Source of the DNA: Diplonema japonicum
Lineage: Eukaryota; Protista; Euglenozoa: Diplonemea
Reading direction: 5' to 3'
Length of the DNA: 64,000 nucleotides
Assembly: GCA_964019335.1 (NCBI GenBank)
Contig: OZ025651.1
Coordinates: 806,001 to 870,000 of the forward strand
Positions within the stretch are counted from its first letter, which is position 1, and each line of letters starts with the position of its first letter. Made by a program: the position numbers and the translations under genes. Positions 12,616 through 56,447 of this stretch are shown here, piece after piece. The notes beneath the pieces were generated by a model that saw only the letters and a list, made by a program, of their open reading frames with translations, searched no databases and had not been told where the DNA came from.

Positions 12616-13704
12616 ATGCTGCGTCATTTCACCACCGCCACCCTTGTGGCAGCCGCATTGGCACAGAACTCATCCATTCCGGCACGCCCTTCTACCCCCA
12701 GTGTCTGTTCCGCTCTTGTCTATAGAGGCCGGCAGGAGTGTGGCAGTGGCTACATGCTGGCCGACATCGACACGCTCACTTCATGCGCTGGCTTCGTCTG
12801 CGAGAACATGATGGGGCCCTGGTCCATTGCACATGGGAAGGACATGACAAAGAAACTCGCTGGTTCTGGTTACGGATGCGGGATCATGGACTGGGACGGG
12901 ACTGGTGTGACCGATGTCGTGTGCATGCCCATTCCTGTCCCCCCACCTGTGGCAGCATGCAATACCCTGACCTACGGAGCAGAGGAGCAGGAGTGCAGCA
13001 ACGGGCAAACCCTTGTAGACATCAACACGCTCACAGCCTGTGCTGACTACATCTGCGACAACATGATGGGGCCCTGGTCAGTGGCGCATGGGAGCGACAT
13101 GATGAAGAAGCTTGCAGGGCCTAGCTATGGGTGTGCCGTGCAGAACTGGGACATGGGGAAGGGGACAGGTATCGGGGACGTGGTCTGCATGCCTGGGAAC
13201 ACACCACCTGCCCCCACACCGACCAGGAGGTGTGACAATCTACAAGCCGCGAAGTTTGTGTGTCCCCCTGGAACACAACTGGCTGGGCTTGAAAGTCTGG
13301 AGGAATGCTCTGACGTGATCTGCAACACGGTGCTGGGAGAGTACGCTATTGCTCACGGCAGCGACATGACAAAGAAGCTTGCAGGGTCTGGCTACGGGTG
13401 CGTAGTCGAGGACTGGGACGGTACCGGTGTGGGGGATGTCATCTGTGAACCGCTGTCAGGTGTTTGCAATTCTCTGAACTACCGGAACGAGGAATGCCCT
13501 GCAGGTGAAGTGTTGGCTGACCCTAAGGTAGTGAAGGTGTGTTCCACTTACATTTGCACCGAGTTGCTCGCACCAACTTACATGGCACATGGGAGCGACA
13601 AAACGAAAATGCTTGTTGGATCCGCCTACGGCTGCATCATCGAGGACTGGTCCGGCGGCAATGTGGGCAGCATCTGTATCCCGGCAACAACCGCGAAGCA
13701 ATGA
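12616..13704 (+). CDS. Secreted Cys-rich protein of 4 aerolysin-small-lobe (APT)-like repeats, copy 1
   Basis: Signal peptide MLRHFTTATLVAAALAQ; four ~75-81-aa repeats C-x-L-x-Y..EC..GY...C...MMGPWSIAHG.D..KKLAGSGYGC.I.DWDG....V.C.P. Confidence 0.8.
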   Translation: MLRHFTTATLVAAALAQNSSIPARPSTPSVCSALVYRGRQECGSGYMLADIDTLTSCAGFVCENMMGPWSIAHGKDMTKKLAGSGYGCGIMDWDGTGVTDVVCMPIPVPPPVAACNTLTYGAEEQECSNGQTLVDINTLTACADYICDNMMGPWSVAHGSDMMKKLAGPSYGCAVQNWDMGKGTGIGDVVCMPGNTPPAPTPTRRCDNLQAAKFVCPPGTQLAGLESLEECSDVICNTVLGEYAIAHGSDMTKKLAGSGYGCVVEDWDGTGVGDVICEPLSGVCNSLNYRNEECPAGEVLADPKVVKVCSTYICTELLAPTYMAHGSDKTKMLVGSAYGCIIEDWSGGNVGSICIPATTAKQ

Positions 13705-13747
13705 GTAATGAGTTCACACAGGTTTTCTATAGTTCTTTCTACTTTTT

Positions 13748-13876
13748 TTGGAAGATATAAACGACAGCTAGGCACTACGGTGGGTAGCAGGGAACGACCC
13801 CAAAAGGGGAGCATCATAAGGTAGGCACGCCACCGCGGCGGGCCGTTGCTAACCACTTCGTTCCTATCATAGTGAA
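13748..13876 (+). mobile_element. 129-bp 5'-truncated copy of the 3' end of the non-LTR retrotransposon at 51423-54555
   Basis: Identical by eye to 54427-54555; flanked by T7 on both sides; absent from the paralogous site (~16660-16670). Confidence 0.92.
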
Positions 13877-14256
13877 ATTTTTTTAATCTCTAAAGGCGAG
13901 GTGGGTGGATACCATTGGAGAGCTCAAAGAAGTACACCAAACGTGATTTTTTCCTCTTTTTTCCCCCATCGTTTTTTAATTTATCTGTGTGACTTTTGCT
14001 AACCTCTCCCTCCCGCCAGTAATTCTTTTTTTTCTCTTTTTTTCTGTTCGCCCATTTAAAATATCTCCACTCGTGTTCTACTAAAAATCGCTGTGTGATC
14101 TCTTTAGTGTCATTTACCTTGGGAAAAAGTATCTGATGACATTAAAGAAGTTTGCAGCACCCCGGCCAAAAATGATGATTTCACATATTCTGTGTCTAAA
14201 TTGTTAAAGAAAGTAGAAGACGAAATCCGTTTGTTTGTTTCTCTCTTTTTTTTTTT

Positions 14257-14613
14257 AGTGTGTACCCCCCACGAATGAGGACGACGAGTCCGAGGGACGG
14301 AGCGAAGTGTGCAGAACGAGACGGATAAGACGCCCCTTCCCTGCGGACGGGGCAAAGAGGGTCAAGTCGCTCACAGCGATCGGAGGCAAGGCTGCAATAG
14401 GCTTTAACAGGAGACCGATCTTCGCATCAAGACAGACAGCGCAAAAGCTACAGGAGTTGAAAGGGACATACAAGAAAGAACGCGTGTCGAGACTACGAAA
14501 AGCTTTAAAGGCGACAATAGGAACGAAGGCTATGCTCCAGAAGGGGAGCATTAATAGATAGGAACTCACACCACAAGAGGCTGTCCTCGAGTGGGATTGT
14601 CTTTTACTATGAG
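14257..14613 (+). mobile_element. 5'-truncated 3' end of a related, diverged retrotransposon subfamily
   Basis: Encodes RRPFPADGAKRVKSLTAIG...IGFNRRPIFAS...YKKERV...QKGSINR*, homologous to the element C-terminus RRAFPAQSCKNVRSLRSIG...VGFDRRALFAS...YRKERI...QKGSIIR*; flanked by T-runs; absent from the duplicate spacer. Confidence 0.85.
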
Positions 14614-15053
14614 TTTTTTTTTCTTCCTTTTTTTTTTCTTAAAGCGTCAACGTACTTACGTAGACTCCCTCTCTTTTCACTCTTTGTTCTCTTTCGCTCG
14701 GGAGGAGATGATGTATTTGCACCGCGGTGAGCACTCGCATGCACACTGATACTTCGATACATCTATTTGTCCCGCCTCTTTTTTCGCTCTGGCGGAGAAG
14801 ACACTCCTGCTCCATCTCGTATATATATATGTGTTCTTCGATTTCTTCTTATTCATAGTGAAGCATTTTGTTCTTTATCGTTTTATCTTAACGGTTTTGT
14901 CCCATTTTCTTTCTCCGAGCTTCTTGAGCTTGTGCGCTTTTTTACCTTTATCCTACCTCAACTTTTTTTTTCTTCTTTTTTTTTCCCTGTATTCTCCTTT
15001 TCCTTTCCCCTCAAACCCGCAACACTGCTTAAACAGCTCCAGGTTTATCCACC

Positions 15054-16634
15054 ATGCTGCGTCATTTCACCACCGCCACCCTTGTGGCAGCCGCATTGGC
15101 ACAGAACTCATCCATTCCGGCACGCCCTTCTACCCCTCCCAGTGTCTGTTCCGCTCTTGTCTACAGAGCAGGCCAGCAGGAGTGTGGCAGTGGCTACATG
15201 CTGGCCGACATCGACACGCTCACTTCATGCGCTGGCTTCGTCTGCGAGAACATGATGGGGCCCTGGTCCATTGCACATGGGAAGGACATGACAAAGAAAC
15301 TCGCTGGTTCTGGTTACGGATGCGGGATCAAGGACTGGGACGGGACTGGTGTGGCGGATGTCGTATGCATGCCCATTCCTGTGACAGAGTGCAGCGCTTT
15401 GACCTACAAAGCAGGCCAGCAGGAGTGTGGCAGTGGCTACATGCTGGCCGACATCGACACGCTCACTTCATGCGCTGGCTTCGTCTGTGATAACCTGATG
15501 AAGCCCTGGTCCATTGCACATGGGAAGGATATGACAAAGAAACTCGCTGGTTCTGGTTACGGATGCGGGATCATGGACTGGGACGGGACTGGTGTGACCG
15601 ATGTCGTGTGCATGCCCATTCCTGTGACAAAATGCAGCGCCCTGACCTACAAAGCAGGCCAGCAGGAGTGTGGCAGTGGCTACATGCTGGCCGACATCGA
15701 CACGCTCACTTCATGCGCTGGCTTCGTCTGCGAGAACATGATGGGGCCCTGGTCCATTGCACATGGGAAGGACATGACAAAGAAACTCGCTGGTTCCGGT
15801 TACGGATGCGGGATCATGGACTGGGACGGGACTGGTGTGACCGATGTCGTGTGCATGCCCATTCCTGTCCCCCCACCTGTGGCAGCATGCAATACCCTGA
15901 CCTACAGAGCAGAGGAGCAGGAGTGCAGCAACGGGCAAACCCTTGTAGACATCAACACGCTCACAGCCTGTGCTGACTACATCTGCGACAACATGATGGG
16001 GCCCTGGTCAGTGGCGCATGGGAGCGACATGATGAAGAAGCTTGCAGGGCCTAGCTATGGGTGTGCCGTGCAGAACTGGGACATGGGGAAGGGGACAGGT
16101 ATCGGGGACGTGGTCTGCATGCCTGGGAACACACCACCTGCCCCCACACCGACCAGGAGGTGTGACAATCTACAAGCCGCGAAGTTTGTGTGTCCCCCTG
16201 GAACACAACTGGCTGGGCTTGAAAGTCTGGAGGAATGCTCTGACGTGATCTGCAACACGGTGCTGGGAGAGTACGCTATTGCTCACGGCAGCGACATGAC
16301 AAAGAAGCTTGCAGGGTCTGGCTACGGGTGCGTAGTCGAGGACTGGGACGGTACCGGTGTGGGGGATGTCATCTGTGAACCGCTGTCAGGTGTTTGCAAT
16401 TCTCTGAACTACCGGAACGAGGAATGCCCTGCAGGTGAAGTGCTGGCTGACCCTAAGGTAGTGAAGGTGTGTTCCACTTACATTTGCACCGAGTTGCTCG
16501 CACCAACTTACATGGCACATGGGAGCGACAAAACGAAAATGCTTGTTGGATCCGCCTACGGCTGCATCATCGAGGACTGGTCCGGCGGCAATGTGGGCAG
16601 CATCTGTATCCCGGCAACAACCGCGAAGCAATGA
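15054..16634 (+). CDS. Secreted Cys-rich protein of 6 APT-like repeats, copy 2
   Basis: Near-identical paralogue of 12616-13704 with two extra 243-nt (81-aa) copies of repeat 1. Confidence 0.8.
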   Translation: MLRHFTTATLVAAALAQNSSIPARPSTPPSVCSALVYRAGQQECGSGYMLADIDTLTSCAGFVCENMMGPWSIAHGKDMTKKLAGSGYGCGIKDWDGTGVADVVCMPIPVTECSALTYKAGQQECGSGYMLADIDTLTSCAGFVCDNLMKPWSIAHGKDMTKKLAGSGYGCGIMDWDGTGVTDVVCMPIPVTKCSALTYKAGQQECGSGYMLADIDTLTSCAGFVCENMMGPWSIAHGKDMTKKLAGSGYGCGIMDWDGTGVTDVVCMPIPVPPPVAACNTLTYRAEEQECSNGQTLVDINTLTACADYICDNMMGPWSVAHGSDMMKKLAGPSYGCAVQNWDMGKGTGIGDVVCMPGNTPPAPTPTRRCDNLQAAKFVCPPGTQLAGLESLEECSDVICNTVLGEYAIAHGSDMTKKLAGSGYGCVVEDWDGTGVGDVICEPLSGVCNSLNYRNEECPAGEVLADPKVVKVCSTYICTELLAPTYMAHGSDKTKMLVGSAYGCIIEDWSGGNVGSICIPATTAKQ

Positions 16635-17217
16635 GTAATGAGTTCACACAGGTTTTCTATTTTTATTTACTCTAAAGGCGAGGTGGGTGGACACCATTGG
16701 AGAGCTTAAAGAAGTACACCAAACGTGTTTTTTTGTAGTTTTAAATATTGTGTTGTCTTCCTTTAATCTCCATATGCGTGAGTTTTGCTAGCACCTCCCC
16801 CCTCCCGCCTGTAATTCTTTTTCTTTTCTTTTTTCTGTTCTCCTGAATAAAATATCTCCACTCGTGTTCTACTAAAAATCGCTGTGTGAACTCTTTAGTG
16901 TTTTTTACCTTGGAAACGTATCCGGTGACATTAAAGAGGTTTGCGGCATGTCTAAATTGTTTTAAAGAGTAGAAGACGAAAAGAAGAAATCCTTTTTTTT
17001 CCTTTTTTTTTTCTGAAAGCGCCTTCTGAAGTTGCTTGTACGCCAGACGGTTTATAAGCAACCAAAGTAATTCATCTTTTTTTTTCTGAAAGCGCCAACA
17101 CGTACGTATGTGGACGCCTTCTCTTTTCACTCTTTGTTCTCTTTCGCTCGGGAAGAGATCGTGGCGTTAGCTGTGGCATATCTTTGTGAAGGCGGCTATC
17201 TTCTACTAGCTATAATG

Positions 17218-37199: not shown

Positions 37200-39017
37200 A
37201 TGTCTATGCGTACAGCAGGCCAGAGCATGCGTGCCCTCAAGAGCAGGAGGGGCCGTGCCTTCGGGACGGACGCCGAGGGCGTTGCGCTTGCGGACGAGTC
37301 GAAGCGTGTGCAGGAGTGGTTCGGGCAGGAGAGGTTCAAGAAGACGGTGAGGACGTGGTCTTCGGACGACGTTGCGAAGCTGAGGGGGTCGTTCCCCGAC
37401 ACGAAGCAGCGCTACCACCTTGCCGACGAGTCGGCGGCGAAGGCGTACAAGCTGTTCCAGAAGAACTGGGACACGAACAAGGCGTCGTGGACCTTCGGGT
37501 GCACGGACCCTGTGCAGGTGGTGCAGATGTGCAAGTACCTGGAGACGATCTACGTGTCTGGGTGGCAGTCGTCGTCGACGTGCTCGACCACGAACGAGCC
37601 CGGTCCGGACCTCGCGGACTACCCCATGGACACGGTGCCCACGAAGGTGGACCAGCTCTTCCGTGCGCAGATGTTCCACGACAGGAAGCAGACCCTGACC
37701 AGGTCGCAGATGACGCAGGAGGAGAGGGAGGCGACACCGCCGTGCGACTACTTCACCCCCATCATCGCGGACGGCGACACGGGGCACGGTGGGATCAGCG
37801 CCCTCATGAAGCTTGTGAAGCTGTTCGTGGAGGCGGGAGCCGCCGGTGTGCACATTGAGGACCAGAAGGCCGGTACGAAGAAGTGCGGGCACATGGGTGG
37901 GAAGGTGCTCGTCTCGACGCAGGAGCACGTGGAGAGGTTGAAGGCTGCTCGTCTGCAGTGCGACATCATGGGGACACGCACGCTGATCGTCGGGCGCACG
38001 GACGCCGAGTCCGCGCAGTACCTCGACAACAACATCGACCCCCGCGACCACCCCTTCATCATGGGGACCAGGAACAAGGACATCCCGAACCTCGTGGACG
38101 ACCTGAGGAGGATGGAGCAGGCGAAGCTGTCCCCGCAGGAGATGATGGAGCAGCAGACCAAGTGGGGAGAGAAGGCGAACGTGATGACCTTCGGTGAGGC
38201 GGTGACGGGGGAGATCCAGAACCTTTCGAAGACGGAAGCCTCGAAGAAGGACGCCCTCGACACCTGGAACAAGAACTACATGGAACTGTCGCACGTGGAG
38301 TCGCGTGAGCTTGCAAAGGACCTTGGTGTGGAGCTGTACTGGTCGTGGTACAAGCCCAGGACCAGGGAGGGGTACTACCGTGTGCTGAGCGGGATGGACT
38401 TCTGCATCCAGAGGGCGAAGGCCTTCGCCCCGCATGCCGACCTGCTGTGGATGGAGACGGACACCCCGAACGTGGAGCAGGCGAAGCAGTTCGCTGACGG
38501 GATCCACGCGAAGTACCCGAACCAGTTCCTTGCGTACAACCTGTCGCCGTCCTTCAACTGGGACGTGGCGGGGCTCAGCGACGAGGAGATGGGCAGCTTC
38601 ACCAGGGACATCGGTAAGCTCGGGTTCGTGTGGCAGTTCTGCACCCTTGCGGGTCTGCACAGCAACGCACTCATGGTGGACACCTTCACCAAGGACTACG
38701 CCCAGAGGGGTATGAGGGCCTACGTGGAGAAGATCCAGAGGAAGGAGAGGGAGTACGACGTCGAGACCCTCACCCACCAGAAGTGGAGCGGTGCCCTCGT
38801 CGTCGACTACCAGTCGGGGCTTGTCAACACCCTCTCCTCCACTGGCATCATGTCCAAGGGTGTCACTGAGGACCAGTTCAAGGCTACCAAGAAGGAGGCT
38901 CACGCCGAAGTCGGCTCCGAGGCCCCTGAGAGGCCCAAGAAGTTCAGGTCCAGCCTTGAGGAGCCCCGTACTCCCGACTTCGTTTACGATGACGCCGATG
39001 ACGCGAAGAAGAACTGA
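37200..39017 (+). CDS. ICL1: Isocitrate lyase (long eukaryotic type) with N-terminal presequence
   Basis: [66 protein letters not shown]; very strong GC3 bias. Confidence 0.96.
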
Positions 39018-51422: not shown

Positions 51423-54400
51423 ACGGAAGAGATTGTCGGTGCGGTGTGCGACCGACAAAGGAAACTGGTGAAGCTGAAACGGTGCGTAGAGGCTGCCCAG
51501 CGACAGATTGAGGACCACCTTCGGAGGGGGCACGTAGGACAACTTCCGCAGGTGACCCACAATACCCTGAAGAACGCCAATGCACGATGCGTGAAGCTAG
51601 GTATTGACTGCGCCGTACCCATGCACGGCTCCTTGGAGAGCATCGAGGAAGCTATCGCTGAAGTGCATGACGTGGCGGGGAGACAGCGCTCTGCACGGAA
51701 CAGAAGTGTAGCCGGGCTGAGGCCTACGAGAGAACGATTGTCTCGAACCTGGAAGAGGGTAGGAGGCACCTCAAGGCGCTGCTGCGGGGAACGCAATGCG
51801 AGAGGTCTGTGGCGGTGGACGTTGGGGACGGTGTGACGGCGGACCCACAAGAAATGGACGAGGTGTTCAGGGAGGCGTGGAAAGGGATCTTCTGCTCGGA
51901 AAGACGAGAACCGCAATTCTCCGATTTCAGGAAGAAGTACGAGGAACACATACAGCACCAGGAAATGCCGAGGACAGAGATTACGGGGAGGCTGCTCCAG
52001 GAGGTGCTGGGCCGCAAGCGTCCTAGGGGCGCGTGTGGAGTCGACGGATGGCGCAACGCAGAGCTGAAGAGGCTGCCCAGGTGGGTACTGGACGGACTGG
52101 CAGACCTGTTTAACCTGATCGAGAGGGAGGGGAGGTGGCCAGAAGCCATGTGTACGGCCCTGGTGTCGCTAATACCGAAGGGGGCAGGCCTCGGCCCCTT
52201 GGACCACAGGCCGATTACTGTCACCAGCGCGGTGTATCGACTATGGGCGTGCGCCAGGCTGAGGACGGTTCTCCCGTGGCAAGAACGGTGGATCTGCGAA
52301 AGACAGCACAGCTTTCGGAAGGGGCGGGGCACGGAGACGGCACTACTGGACCTCCTAGCTCAGTATGAAGAGGCGATGTTGGAGGGTAAGGAGCTGGTGG
52401 GCGTGGCTCTGGATTTTGCGAAATGCTTCGACCTGGTACCGCAGCGGCTCACCTTCGAGCTAATGCGGAGCCTTGGGCTCGAGTCGGGTGTTGCGTGCGC
52501 AATGGAGGGCATGTACTCACAGATTACGCGGCGGTTCAAGTACCCCTTTGGGGTGGGCGGAACCTTCAGAGTGACCAATGGGATCCTGCAAGGGTGTCCG
52601 CTGTCCGTGATCATGATCAATGCGCTCATTGCGGTCATGCTTAAGGCGCTGGAAGCCGGTGGTGACCTCGTGACGATAGCCTATGCGGACGACGCCTACA
52701 TGCTGGCTAAGCTGCGGGAGGCACTACAAGCGGCGACGGACGGTGTCATGGAGTTCTGTACGATAACGGGCATGGAGTTGAATATACGGAAGACGTCGGT
52801 AGTGAGGTGGACGGAAGAAGAAGGAAGGTAAGGCTCAACAAGGTCGACAAGCATAAGGCCTTGGGAACTATGCTGAACACGACAGCATGTGGCACGAGCT
52901 GGAACGACGCCGCGGTTACTGCAAGACAGAAGGTGGAAAGGCTGGCTTCGACCCAGCTCTCTTTTCAGAGGAAGGAGAGTCTCATCAGAACTCATATTAT
53001 GCCGGGACTGCTCTTCAGCTCGAGCTTCTCTCCGCCGAGTGACTGGAGTCTCAGTCAGCTTAAGGCTCGATCGTGAAATGCCTGTGGGGCCCCCACTACA
53101 GAGGGAGATCTCCAGACGTGGTACTGTCAATCCTGGCGCGAGCGCACCGGGTGGACCCGCTGTGTGCCGTAGTGTACAGTGCTTTGATGATGCTGAGGAG
53201 GTGCTGGCTGAGGCAGGACGGGGCAATGACAACATGGACGCAGTTGGCACAGGCGTACGGAACTTCTGGGCAGGTGAGGCCGAGGGGGGTCGTAGGAAAT
53301 GTGCTCCTGAGGTGGCTCCCGGCGATCGGGTGGAAATGGGAAAGGCTGGCAAGCTGGCACAGGGGAGAGAATCCTGGGCACGACCTCAGGGAGGCTCTGC
53401 GCAGGATGAGGACATCGGGTATTGTGAATGCACGAAGCACGATGGCCGGGCTTGGGATGGGCGCGGCCCCTGCAACGAACGCTTACTGGATGAAGTGCAG
53501 CGCACGCAGACCTCTCGAAGCGTGGCGGGTGAGGAGGATAATCGCCGGGGCGGTGCCGTACCTCAGCCCGTATGCGAAACAAGTTTTACTCTCCCCTCCT
53601 GAAGAACCTGATGAGGAGGGAGGTGAAGGGAGCGAGGAAGAAGCCGACCACCTGGGTAGGGGGAGGACGGACAAAGCAGCGGGAGCGCTCAATTGCGATG
53701 TTTGTGATGCCGCGAAGGGCAGCACAGTTAGGTTGCTGCGACACCAGCTTTGGGAGTGCGAGGTCGCATTGGAGGTGCAGAAGAAGGAGGTATATACCGG
53801 TCTGGTCAGGAGCGAAAGGTGGCCGGTCTGTTTGGAGCTGCACGGGATTCTCCCGAGGAAGGTCGTGTTCCGCGGTTTGGAGAAGTTGCAGAGGTATTTG
53901 GCAGAGGTGGTGAGGCGCAGGGACGATGCTCTGGCGGTGAAACGGTTCGCGGTTGAGAAGGAACCGCCGTGGATGGTGACGACTCAAGGAAGGCGTTTCG
54001 AGGCGCCAAAGGTTGTGGAACTGTACAAGCTCAAGCTGACCCCGCAGCTCAGGGAGTATGGTGATCAGGTGCTGAGATGGCTGGCTACGCTGCGGTGGGC
54101 GGAGGAGGGAACGTCCGTGTCGGCGATCGAGCTGGCGATTGACTTCGAGTGCTACACGAAGAAGACGCTGGGGGTTAACATCAACACGACGATTGACATC
54201 GACAAGAAGGCGGTGAGGATCAAGCGGGTCCTGGATACGCTGCAAGCGACATGGATGAGGGAGAAGAGGAGACGCGCTTTTCCGGCGCAGTCATGCAAGA
54301 ACGTGAGATCACTGCGATCCATTGGCCGCGACCACGTCGTTGGCTTTGATAGGAGGGCCCTGTTTGCATCGGGGCTGACGGCGACCAAGCTGAAAGGACT

Positions 54401-54555
54401 GAGAGAAGATTACCGGAAAGAAAGGATTGGAAGATATAAACGACAGCTAGGCACTACGGTGGGTAGCAGGGAACGACCCCAAAAGGGGAGCATCATAAGG
54501 TAGGCACGCCACCGCGGCGGGCCGTTGCTAACCACTTCGTTCCTATCATAGTGAA
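51423..54555 (+). mobile_element. 5'-truncated non-LTR retrotransposon (RT, zinc knuckle, C-terminal domain), frameshifted
   Basis: RT motifs GVDGW, LIPK, RPITVTSAVYRLW, LDFAKCFD, GILQGCPLS, YADD; CDVC..HQLWEC knuckle; ORF broken near 51750-51810, 52820 and 53070; stop at 54503; ~50-nt 3' UTR; T9 run on each side. Confidence 0.93.
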
Positions 54556-54893
54556 TTTTTTTTTCTTTTCAGTTTGGTGGGTTAAAGTTGAAAATCGAAA
54601 AAGAAGTGGAATTTAAAGGAAAAAAAAAAAAAAAAAGTTGGTAAGTTAGAATTGTACCGTAAATATTATATCCCTTTTGAACTATTCTACTCAATTTGGG
54701 TCCTTTTTACGGGACATAAAAAGAGACAAATCCCGTTTTAAAGAAGAAATTTTTGAGGCATGCAAGCACGCTCTTCCCGTGGTCCTTTCCAACCACTCCT
54801 CCCTCTTTTTTTACTCCTTTGCCTTCTCCCGCTGCATTCATTCTAACGAAAAAAAAAAGGGGGTGGAAAAAAAAAAAGAGAAAGAAAAAAAAA

Positions 54894-56447
54894 ATGCCCC
54901 AGCCGATGTGTGGTTTAGAGGCAACAGCAAAGGGCCTCCATGGAGTGTGGTTGTCGGTGATCCCACAGAGAAATGAATTGGCCGCGGACATGGTTGCGGT
55001 GAGCCCATGCATCCTACCCATGGAGCTCTGGGTGAGGGCAAAGACTAAGGGTCCGCTGGAGGGAACAATGAAATGCTGCGGCAACAAAATATGCAGAAAA
55101 CGGGACGAAGAAAACAAAGGAGAAGCTCCTGTGTTCCTGCCTGTGACAATCGGACGAGATCCCGTGAAGAGACCCAACTCCCGTCTGTCCACAGACCCAC
55201 TGACCGCCATTTTATACCTTCCCGGGTACTTGCTAGTCCATCCCGAGGTGTGCGAAAACTATGTCTTAGAAAAGGTCTTCACAGGGTGCTTGGTAGACAT
55301 GTCGAAAACCCACTTGAAAACCCTTCAGGGCAGGATGGACAAGTTTGCGAAAACTGCTGGGAAAGATATTTTTCTGAGGACGGAGGACTTCCCGGTTCTG
55401 AGCCATGTTGTGGCCGCGATGGTGGTGTTGAACGAACTGGGATACATAGACGGTGGAGCTGCGGGTTTGGAATACAGAGAAAACATCAAGAAAGCTGTCA
55501 TATTAGAGGCGAATAAACGACGAAGAATATTGGCTGGTACGACAGCAGAGGTTGTCAATTTCGAACCCATGCTGAAGAGGTTGCTAGGCATAGTTGACGA
55601 AGTGACGTCTGTGAGGCGGTTGGCAGGGTTCGATTTCACCTTGGAAGCAGCAAGCTCTACCGACACTGATGTTGAACCCCCGTCTGAATTCTCCGTGAGA
55701 ATGTTTCGCAGCGTAGCGGCATCGAAAACTCGCGACAGGCTCGGCCACGCAGATGTGTTCTCCACCGATTTCAGAAACTTCCAGTCAGACGACGGGTGCA
55801 TCATTGACCTACCAGTCGCAGACGACAATCCCTTGAAGAATATTGTTCCAGATGGGTATGTCTATGAAGATTCCTTCATCACCGAAGATGAGGAAGCTGA
55901 GCTGTTAAAACTCACTGAACCCCGTCTTCAATACGGCCATGAGGGTATGCTCAGACGCGTTGCTCACTTTGGATACAATTTCCTGTACCCCGCGGGGGGG
56001 ATTGATTTGAAAAACCCGGACCCTGAAGGGTTGCAGCCGTGGATCGCGAAGCTTGCTCGGAGGATCGAAACGCGTTTCAAAGCCGTCCCTGGAACACTGT
56101 CGCAGATGACCGCCAACGAGTACAACCCCGGACAGGGAATCGCACCTCATTTCGACGATTTCGACACCATCGGGGAGCTTTTGTGCACCATCTCCCTCGG
56201 TGCGGAGACGCTTCTTACGCTTACTGACACCGTCACTACTACTTCCTTGCAGGTCCGGCTTAAGCGTCGGTCCATTGGTGTGATGACAAGGGATGTGCGG
56301 TACAAATGGACCCACGGGGTGCCGAAAAGAATGACCGACCCGGCTGTGACCCCAGGCGAGAAAGCCCTTGCTCGGGGGCACCGCATTTCGCTAACCTTTC
56401 GCAACGTGCCTCCGAACAAGGATTGGAGGTTGGACGGTGAAAAATGA
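54894..56447 (+). CDS. AlkB-family 2OG-Fe(II) dioxygenase (ALKBH8-like catalytic domain) with unknown N-terminal region
   Basis: FITEDEEAELL, RRVAHFGYNF, QMTANEYNPGQGIAPHFD (HxD), ISLG, RYKWTHGV (H), RISLTFR (RxxxxxR). Confidence 0.88.
   Translation: MPQPMCGLEATAKGLHGVWLSVIPQRNELAADMVAVSPCILPMELWVRAKTKGPLEGTMKCCGNKICRKRDEENKGEAPVFLPVTIGRDPVKRPNSRLSTDPLTAILYLPGYLLVHPEVCENYVLEKVFTGCLVDMSKTHLKTLQGRMDKFAKTAGKDIFLRTEDFPVLSHVVAAMVVLNELGYIDGGAAGLEYRENIKKAVILEANKRRRILAGTTAEVVNFEPMLKRLLGIVDEVTSVRRLAGFDFTLEAASSTDTDVEPPSEFSVRMFRSVAASKTRDRLGHADVFSTDFRNFQSDDGCIIDLPVADDNPLKNIVPDGYVYEDSFITEDEEAELLKLTEPRLQYGHEGMLRRVAHFGYNFLYPAGGIDLKNPDPEGLQPWIAKLARRIETRFKAVPGTLSQMTANEYNPGQGIAPHFDDFDTIGELLCTISLGAETLLTLTDTVTTTSLQVRLKRRSIGVMTRDVRYKWTHGVPKRMTDPAVTPGEKALARGHRISLTFRNVPPNKDWRLDGEK

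Follow-up and report, generated by a model that had tools for sequence, protein, structure and literature searches.

Two predicted secreted proteins of Diplonema japonicum built from tandem six-cysteine modules with the predicted fold of aerolysin domain 1

Why should a free-standing relative of the binding lobe of a bacterial toxin occur in four and six tandem copies in the proteins of a eukaryote? The question is raised by two neighbouring genes, gene 1 and gene 2, in a stretch of 64,000 nucleotides (nt) of Diplonema japonicum DNA (assembly GCA_964019335.1, contig OZ025651.1, positions 806,001 to 870,000 of the forward strand), referred to here in its full length as the window. A sequence-only reading had proposed that both genes encode secreted proteins made only of tandem domains of the APT type found in aerolysin and pertussis toxin, and that these are a bacterial toxin domain acquired laterally and repurposed. 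Its description of the two open reading frames (ORFs), with their coordinates and repeat counts, is confirmed, the leader being supported by hydropathy; both ORFs lie on the plus strand, and the repeat that it quoted corresponds to A3 of gene 2.

Homology and predicted fold of the repeat

Repeats of 73-79 residues with six cysteines each (24 in the gene 1 protein and 36 in the gene 2 protein) fill both window proteins and are joined by short, often proline-rich linkers. The proteins begin with the same 16-residue hydrophobic leader, whose best 9-residue hydropathy mean of 2.23 fits a signal peptide, and in their mature form they are acidic, with an isoelectric point (pI) of about 4.5. Signal peptide, transmembrane and glycosylphosphatidylinositol (GPI) calls for these proteins are based on hydropathy only; by this measure neither has a second hydrophobic stretch (all 19-residue segments after residue 35 score 1.23 or less, compared with 2.05-3.15 in membrane-anchored homologues), and neither ends in a hydrophobic GPI-type tail at the C-terminus. 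A mitochondrial targeting reading of the Met-Leu-Arg start was ruled out by the hydrophobic core, the matching leaders of homologues and the six-cysteine modules.

Aerolysin was missed by single sequences and by a five-repeat profile, so alignment depth was needed to detect the relationship. A search of the PDB with a profile of the window's five distinct repeats alone returned CheY chance matches and no aerolysin, and single-sequence PDB searches gave no matches for the homologue P0001 and four chance matches, none of them aerolysin, for P0036. With a 25-row profile that held no bacterial rows, all 12 PDB matches at E<=10 were to aerolysin, over domain 1 (E 0.0012-0.0023), and with two bacterial rows added aerolysin was matched at E 0.0003. 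Comparison of the eukaryotic repeats with aerolysin domain 1 (residues about 14-77) by hhalign gave a probability of 95%. Matches to the repeat are not due to chance, since 1160 shuffled bacterial proteins scored at most 6.0 bits on the repeat profile. Counting against the assignment, the cut-off of the Pfam APT family (PF03440, 25 bits) was missed, with no match for the whole window proteins and 12.7 bits (E 0.13) for one repeat; two of the 23 homologues scanned do pass it (P0011 at 29.4 bits and P0036 at 31.6 bits), so that the Pfam match expected from the sequence-only reading was found in relatives and not in the window proteins themselves. Lectin_C had no match in the window proteins at E<=10, and FG-GAP, zinc-finger and other weak Pfam matches were set aside as fragmentary chance matches.

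The structure of one repeat, A1 of gene 2, was predicted with AlphaFold2 from 28 rows, without templates and without any aerolysin row, and the remaining repeats were assigned by homology at 76-97 bits on the repeat profile. The A1 model has a predicted local distance difference test score (pLDDT) of 93.5. All eight Foldseek matches of this model at E<=0.001 were aerolysin, with a template modelling score (TM) of 0.78, a root mean square deviation (r.m.s.d.) of 2.2, 76 columns and 28% identity for 1pre_A, and a pertussis toxin chain came next (TM 0.72). In a VIA-align comparison with 48,161 chains, aerolysin residues 6-77 were the sole match at Z>=8 (Z 10.8, r.m.s.d. 1.6, 71 aligned), followed by pertussis toxin at Z 6.6 and then by C-type lectin domains at Z 6.0 or below. 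A first model, built from six rows, had reached a pLDDT of 50.8, found nothing in Foldseek and gave one weak VIA-align match, aerolysin at Z 2.9. With profile and structural matches both pointing to the toxin domain that the sequence-only reading had named, the repeats are almost certainly APT-fold homologues of aerolysin domain 1.

The likeness to aerolysin domain 1 (PDB 1PRE, 9FMX) extends over the whole predicted unit at 25-28% identity and includes the first and last core cysteines and the Trp and Tyr at the positions of aerolysin W45 and Y61. Unlike aerolysin, the window proteins have four to six copies in tandem rather than one, six cysteines per repeat rather than two and a eukaryotic host, and they lie below the Pfam cut-off. 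They also lack the pore-forming lobe: the profile of this large lobe (PF01117) found nothing in the window's 1223 stop-to-stop frames (best E 6.9) and nothing in 84 module-bearing proteins, 58 of them bacterial, so that the lobe search and hydropathy agree with the earlier reading, which had seen no pore-forming lobe, transmembrane segment or clear GPI signal. The APT domain at the N-terminus of pertussis toxin S2/S3 (PDB 6RO0, 1PRT) shares the predicted fold, but identity is 19-20%, it was not matched in the PDB profile searches, and its AB5 B-oligomer domain is absent from the window proteins. Likeness to animal C-type lectin domains (tetranectin, the carbohydrate-recognition domains of the mannose receptor) is a distant one of fold, at Z about 4.6-6.0 but 7-15% identity and with no Ca-site motif seen in the repeat; because the 76-residue model aligns to domains of 100-125 residues, their long loop region is largely missing. 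As judged by sequence comparison, the window proteins are a toxin-free six-cysteine variant of APT, outside formal Pfam membership, and not a toxin.

Relatives in diplonemids and bacteria

A profile search of 1.84 billion representatives, with a profile that unintentionally included an M6PR tail, gave 1576 matches, of which 150 were listed, and all family counts given here come from the matches listed. The module is carried by 22 of the 150, in 21 cases as the six-cysteine type, and is absent from the other 128, so the spread of the family outside diplonemids is not settled by that search. The 21 six-cysteine proteins comprise 13 named members from six diplonemid species (Diplonema japonicum, D. 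ambulator, D. papillatum, Flectonema neradi, Rhynchopus euleeides and Lacrimia lanifica), seven unnamed ENA records and one further protein. Because 11 of the 13 named members derive from transcriptome assemblies, the family is expressed in those species. Both D. papillatum members, DIPPA_15423 and DIPPA_05207, are annotated as hypothetical; in the supplements of the D. papillatum genome paper the latter shares an orthogroup with one 'Ahoya' protein, a hint that diplonemids may not be the only holders of the module or its anchor. A search for longer homologues returned P0003 alone, and none of 99 pattern matches to the window repeats in metagenome contigs was confirmed.

Layouts among the matches listed include soluble proteins of 2-6 modules, a WD40 domain plus three modules (P0032 of Rhynchopus euleeides, with a leader, a WD40 beta-propeller and three APT-type modules) and type I membrane proteins. 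At least nine membrane proteins (P0004 and eight of the 23 scanned) pass the Pfam cut-off for ATG27 or Man-6-P_recep by their anchor and tail only, the match spanning profile positions of about 160-260, and the lumenal part, in which M6PR and Atg27 receptors have an M6PR-fold (MRH) domain, is occupied instead by 1-3 APT modules. A YxxPhi motif lies within the last 25 residues of seven of these nine and is terminal in four (YSSV, YQSV, YHNV, YTSV); P0004, which ends in YSSV, is, among single-module relatives, the one nearest to window repeats C and D. Yeast Atg27 is described, in the available parts of two papers, as having a lumenal M6PR fold and an AP-3-binding motif, YSAV (PMC5940307, PMC8008256). 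Both window proteins lack the M6PR/Atg27-type transmembrane segment and cytosolic tail. The earlier wording, secreted proteins made only of tandem APT domains, therefore suits the layout of these two proteins but not that of the family, which also includes the nine type I membrane proteins whose tail is of the M6PR/Atg27 type.

The same profile search also returned P0036, a bacterial protein consisting of a leader and three four-cysteine modules. This protein leads to a set of 57, the named ones mostly myxobacterial (Sorangium, Corallococcus, Archangium, Cystobacter), of which 21 bear a precomputed PF03440 label. The bacterial module is present at 30 genome loci, mostly in Myxococcota and also in Nostoc, Shimia and Oligoflexus, in 17 of 301 genomes sampled from the phylum of locus L001, and at 21 metagenome loci; no match was confirmed among 22 pattern matches in viral contigs or among 81 in genome contigs searched with P0036 alone. 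It occurs alone, in tandem or fused, and the carbohydrate-linked fusions involve a GH18/EndoS-like endoglycosidase, beta-trefoils, MVL with DM9, an OAA-family sugar-binding domain and DUF642. In P0207 of Algicola sagamiensis, a leader and two APT-type modules precede a GH18/EndoS-like endo-beta-N-acetylglucosaminidase, and the second module is the top bacterial scorer on the eukaryotic profile; this protein would allow the idea of APT as a carbohydrate-binding module to be tested directly. Two Nostoc proteins of 1044-1049 residues (L014:2012-5143 and L015:2030-5176, Pfam scan of L014) have an OAA-family sugar-binding domain, an APT-type module and an FGE-sulfatase domain in series, and a 306-residue frame (L040-L042:2291-3208, Pfam scan of L040) combines MVL, an APT-type module and DM9 repeats, and so three lectin-type folds.

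These toxin-free four-cysteine modules, from Myxococcota and scattered other bacteria, are the nearest to the window repeats by profile and share with them the tandem leader-plus-modules layout, although the eukaryotic modules add a third cysteine pair, lose an Asp/Arg/Ser pattern, and have proline-rich linkers and membrane-receptor forms. The bacterial proteins are themselves hypothetical proteins. Core cysteines are nested: aerolysin-type modules have two, 56 of 57 bacterial modules have four and all 56 eukaryotic modules counted (two short ones were left out) have six, and the four in those 56 bacterial modules are shared with the eukaryotic six. On the eukaryotic profile, the bacterial modules, a set selected for likeness because it was found through that profile, score 24-54 bits (median 39) against 10.5-11.6 for three aerolysin-type modules; the hhalign scores are 81 for eukaryotic with bacterial modules, 58 for bacterial with aerolysin and 41 for eukaryotic with aerolysin.

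In a tree of 116 rows and 74 columns, which was rooted on the three aerolysin-type modules and contained some of the bacterial modules but no pertussis rows, the eukaryotic modules form one clade (99/99) nested in the bacterial set. Set against this placement, an approximately unbiased (AU) test on the 74 columns did not reject a single clade of eukaryotic and aerolysin modules (p 0.326); the best tree and the aerolysin-sister tree both give the eukaryotic modules bacterial sisters. These comparisons of sequence place the toxin-free four-cysteine APT modules, and not aerolysin, as the nearest bacterial kin, and make one lateral gain from bacteria likely. Given the scores of 81 versus 41 and the shared second cysteine pair, a mobile binding module of which toxins also make use is a likelier source than a repurposed toxin domain. 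Of the origin first proposed, the bacterial source thus holds as likely, but the toxin ancestry gives way to toxin-free kin, with descent from aerolysin not rejected by the tree.

Putative glycan binding and competing readings

Domain 1 of aerolysin binds N-linked glycans and this binding is disrupted by W45A, as reported in part of a preprint (bioRxiv 10.64898/2026.07.29.741567), and the APT domain of pertussis toxin holds an N-glycan site according to the available text of two papers (PMC12002313; PMC11610972). Of the 56 eukaryotic modules, 45 have an aromatic residue at the W45 position, which is Trp in 31 of them, and 38 have Tyr at the Y61 position. Repeat positions 40, 42, 53, 57 and 62 align in the PDB profile alignment with aerolysin W45, I47, M57, Y61 and K66, the last four of which we take to be glycan-site residues beside W45. 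At these five positions the A repeats carry W, I, A, Y and finally either K or M, repeat B keeps the Trp and Tyr of the W45 and Y61 positions, C has Tyr at both and D has Thr at the W45 position, and on this sequence comparison the repeat that has been amplified, A, is the one closest to the site of the toxin.

Conservation of an aromatic residue at the W45 position, seen in 45 of 56 modules, together with the bacterial fusions to lectin domains and an endoglycosidase, suggests that the modules probably bind glycans. On balance we favour a reading in which these predicted secreted proteins of tandem, predicted APT-fold modules are soluble multivalent lectins that bind and cross-link glycans. 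The proteins would travel by the secretory route to the cell exterior or to the lumen of feeding or lysosomal compartments, where they would meet glycans on the surfaces of food, prey or host. Each module would be closed by three disulphides and would carry one glycan site around the Trp and Tyr at the positions of aerolysin W45 and Y61; binding by a single module may be weak, and four to six modules on proline-rich linkers would provide avidity and cross-linking. The membrane forms would take hold of cargo bearing glycans and use the tyrosine motif to sort it, a receptor reading that is suggested by the position of the module, where M6PR and Atg27 carry their lumenal domain, and by the resemblance of the YxxPhi motifs in seven of nine to YSAV of Atg27. 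A bacterial four-cysteine toxin-free module may have been gained laterally once, before the six species split, and then have gained its third cysteine pair, with an expansion of repeats that would still be going on. D. papillatum itself is portrayed, in the part of its genome paper that was available, as predatory and rich in laterally acquired carbohydrate genes (PMC10161547). We put forward more tentatively, as a scenario that we would not yet call probable, that APT is a mobile bacterial carbohydrate-binding module that diplonemids took up once, swapped for the lectin domain of M6PR/Atg27-type receptors and multiplied in soluble form, thereby gaining a means of glycan recognition particular to their lineage, the soluble proteins coating or clumping prey and the membrane forms pulling glycan-tagged cargo to the lysosome or food vacuole.

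Several observations weigh against these proposals. The shared C-type-lectin-like fold by itself shows no function; the A repeats have Ala where aerolysin has M57, and Lys occupies the K66 position in one of four A copies; 11 of the 56 eukaryotic modules, window repeat D included, have no aromatic residue at the W45 position; and Arg, Asp and Ser positions that are strongly conserved in bacterial modules vary in eukaryotic ones. Bacterial fusion partners also include a metallopeptidase, a delta carbonic anhydrase, a multicopper oxidase, a kinase and a solute-binding protein, and because of the M6PR tail in the search profile, receptor forms are over-represented among the relatives and other matches were crowded out.

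Some of these points lend themselves to a different reading, in which the APT fold is kept but the module binds proteins or is a structural, disulphide-locked unit of a cell coat, mucus or extrusome. C-type-lectin-like folds often bind proteins, the sequence of the putative site varies widely and yet all six cysteines are kept in 56 of 56 eukaryotic modules, and the non-carbohydrate enzymes among the bacterial fusions are of a piece with such a role. The aromatic residue at the W45 position, the repeated bacterial pairing with mannose-type lectin domains and an endoglycosidase, and the presence of the module in the ligand-binding slot of M6PR/Atg27-type receptors argue the other way, and we consider a non-lectin role rather unlikely. 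Less likely still, the soluble proteins may stay inside the cell as lumenal adaptors or equivalents of shed receptors, working alongside the membrane forms to gather glycoprotein cargo, such as hydrolases, for delivery to the lysosome or food vacuole; the closeness of P0004, with its terminal YSSV, to repeats C and D and the low pI of the mature proteins are compatible with this, but the soluble forms show no retention or sorting signal, and four to six modules with recent repeat gain would better fit avidity at an external surface.

The toxin-like fold and key Trp invite the thought that the proteins mask the cell's own glycoproteins and compete with aerolysin-type toxins, a defence or decoy role also raised by the sequence-only reading, and Leishmania, a euglenozoan, is attacked by aerolysin according to the available part of a preprint (bioRxiv 10.64898/2026.07.29.741567). 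We judge this very improbable: a binding lobe would compete for the receptor and not trap the toxin, the domain 2 GPI site dominates killing of Leishmania in the same preprint, and the family is older and more diverse than the role needs, with nearest kin that are not toxins. Equally hard to credit is an aiming subunit of a two-part cytolysin with its pore-forming partner encoded elsewhere in the genome, for although eukaryotic aerolysin-family pore domains combine with many binding domains and diplonemids are reported to be predatory (PMC5654971 and PMC10161547, each in the part available), the lobe search, limited to the window and the 84 module-bearing proteins, found no pore-forming lobe, and the bacterial kin are toxin-free too.

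A literature search, with subscription papers and bioRxiv supplements outside it, found no paper joining diplonemids and aerolysin, and the literature that it found on the APT domain treats it only as part of aerolysin and pertussis toxin. The words 'lectin', 'toxin' and 'aerolysin' are absent from the main text of the D. papillatum genome paper, and 'aerolysin', 'PF03440' and 'pertussis' are all missing from the seven supplements searched. In the small lobe of snail biomphalysins, according to the available text of one paper, no lectin motif was found (PMC8047071). Some toxin-free bacterial members are already labelled automatically by Pfam; what is new, as far as sequence comparison goes, is the toxin-free six-cysteine variant and the diplonemid family that it forms, with both soluble multivalent and receptor-type members. 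A toxin-free eukaryotic family beside a toxin-free bacterial pool would recast APT as a general binding module borrowed by toxins and, if its members are the lectins that we favour, would supply small, disulphide-stable, non-toxic domains for defining APT glycan specificity. Diplonemids are abundant marine flagellates whose feeding is, in the part of the genome paper available, described as poorly understood (PMC10161547), and the family names candidate prey-recognition and cargo-sorting proteins that are approachable in the tractable D. papillatum (DIPPA_15423, DIPPA_05207).

The gene pair and its genomic setting

Table 1. Positions in the window of the two genes, their predicted parts and a nearby retroelement copy
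Feature	Position	Strand	Description
Gene 1	12616..13704	+	362-aa protein: predicted signal peptide and 4 APT-type repeats A, B, C, D
Gene 1 predicted signal peptide	12616..12663	+	aa 1-16, probable cleavage before Gln17; hydropathy and similar leaders in D. japonicum homologues
Gene 1 repeat A	12706..12930	+	repeat comparison
Gene 1 repeat B	12958..13194	+	repeat comparison
Gene 1 repeat C	13231..13452	+	Tyr aligned with aerolysin W45
Gene 1 repeat D	13465..13683	+	no aromatic aligned at W45 position
137-bp copy of 3' end of the window's retroelement without long terminal repeats (non-LTR)	13748..13884	+	99.3% identical to 54427-54563; outside protein
Gene 2	15054..16634	+	526-aa protein: predicted signal peptide and 6 APT-type repeats A1, A2, A3, B, C, D
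Gene 2 predicted signal peptide	15054..15101	+	amino acids identical to those of gene 1; hydropathy
Gene 2 repeat A1	15147..15374	+	unit that was modelled; matches aerolysin residues 6-77
Gene 2 repeat A2	15390..15617	+	repeat comparison
Gene 2 repeat A3	15633..15860	+	repeat comparison
Gene 2 repeat B	15888..16124	+	repeat comparison
Gene 2 repeat C	16161..16382	+	repeat comparison
Gene 2 repeat D	16395..16613	+	repeat comparison

The two genes (Table 1) are a recent tandem duplication, since they are 99.3% identical across their last 1013 nt, and 969 coding nt contain two synonymous and one non-synonymous codon differences. The three A copies of gene 2 differ from one another by 3-7 amino acids. 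Bacterial contamination was ruled out by the same-strand cluster of eukaryotic genes in which the pair lies (neighbours encode ankyrin, kelch, GH47, phosphatase and isocitrate lyase proteins), by pyrimidine tracts before both starts and by a GC content at third codon positions (GC3) of 0.65-0.66, similar to that of the surrounding eukaryotic genes.

The unique upstream flanks of both genes and the A1-A2 junction are present in short-read contigs of three of four sequencing runs (X1, X2 and X4), with no short-read record spanning the whole stretch and one of the runs possibly being the source sample. The contig of the shared gene part (window 15839-16808) has a depth of about twice single-copy in X1 and X2 and about six times in X4; depth over the shared B-C-D part does not equal copy number, and the value in X4 is a weak hint of copy-number variation. 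A run labelled as another organism, X11, contains a divergent copy with 20 differences across 16135-16808.

The 137-bp retroelement copy lies in the 3' flank of gene 1 and is absent from that of gene 2; its contig depth is very high in each of the four runs, and it resembles a short dispersed retro-element in untranslated regions. Its source element has a reverse transcriptase at 51854-52831 and an ORF at 53187-54503, and in the region 51854-56447 a 517-aa ORF comes immediately after the reverse-transcriptase ORFs and encodes a 2OG-Fe(II) oxygenase (AlkB-type) domain. A second high-depth repeat, at 14306-14560 between the two genes, overlaps short ORFs of 84-104 aa. Further along the window, the isocitrate lyase gene (37200-39017) has a GC3 of 0.90, compared with 0.59-0.66 in the eight other genes measured.

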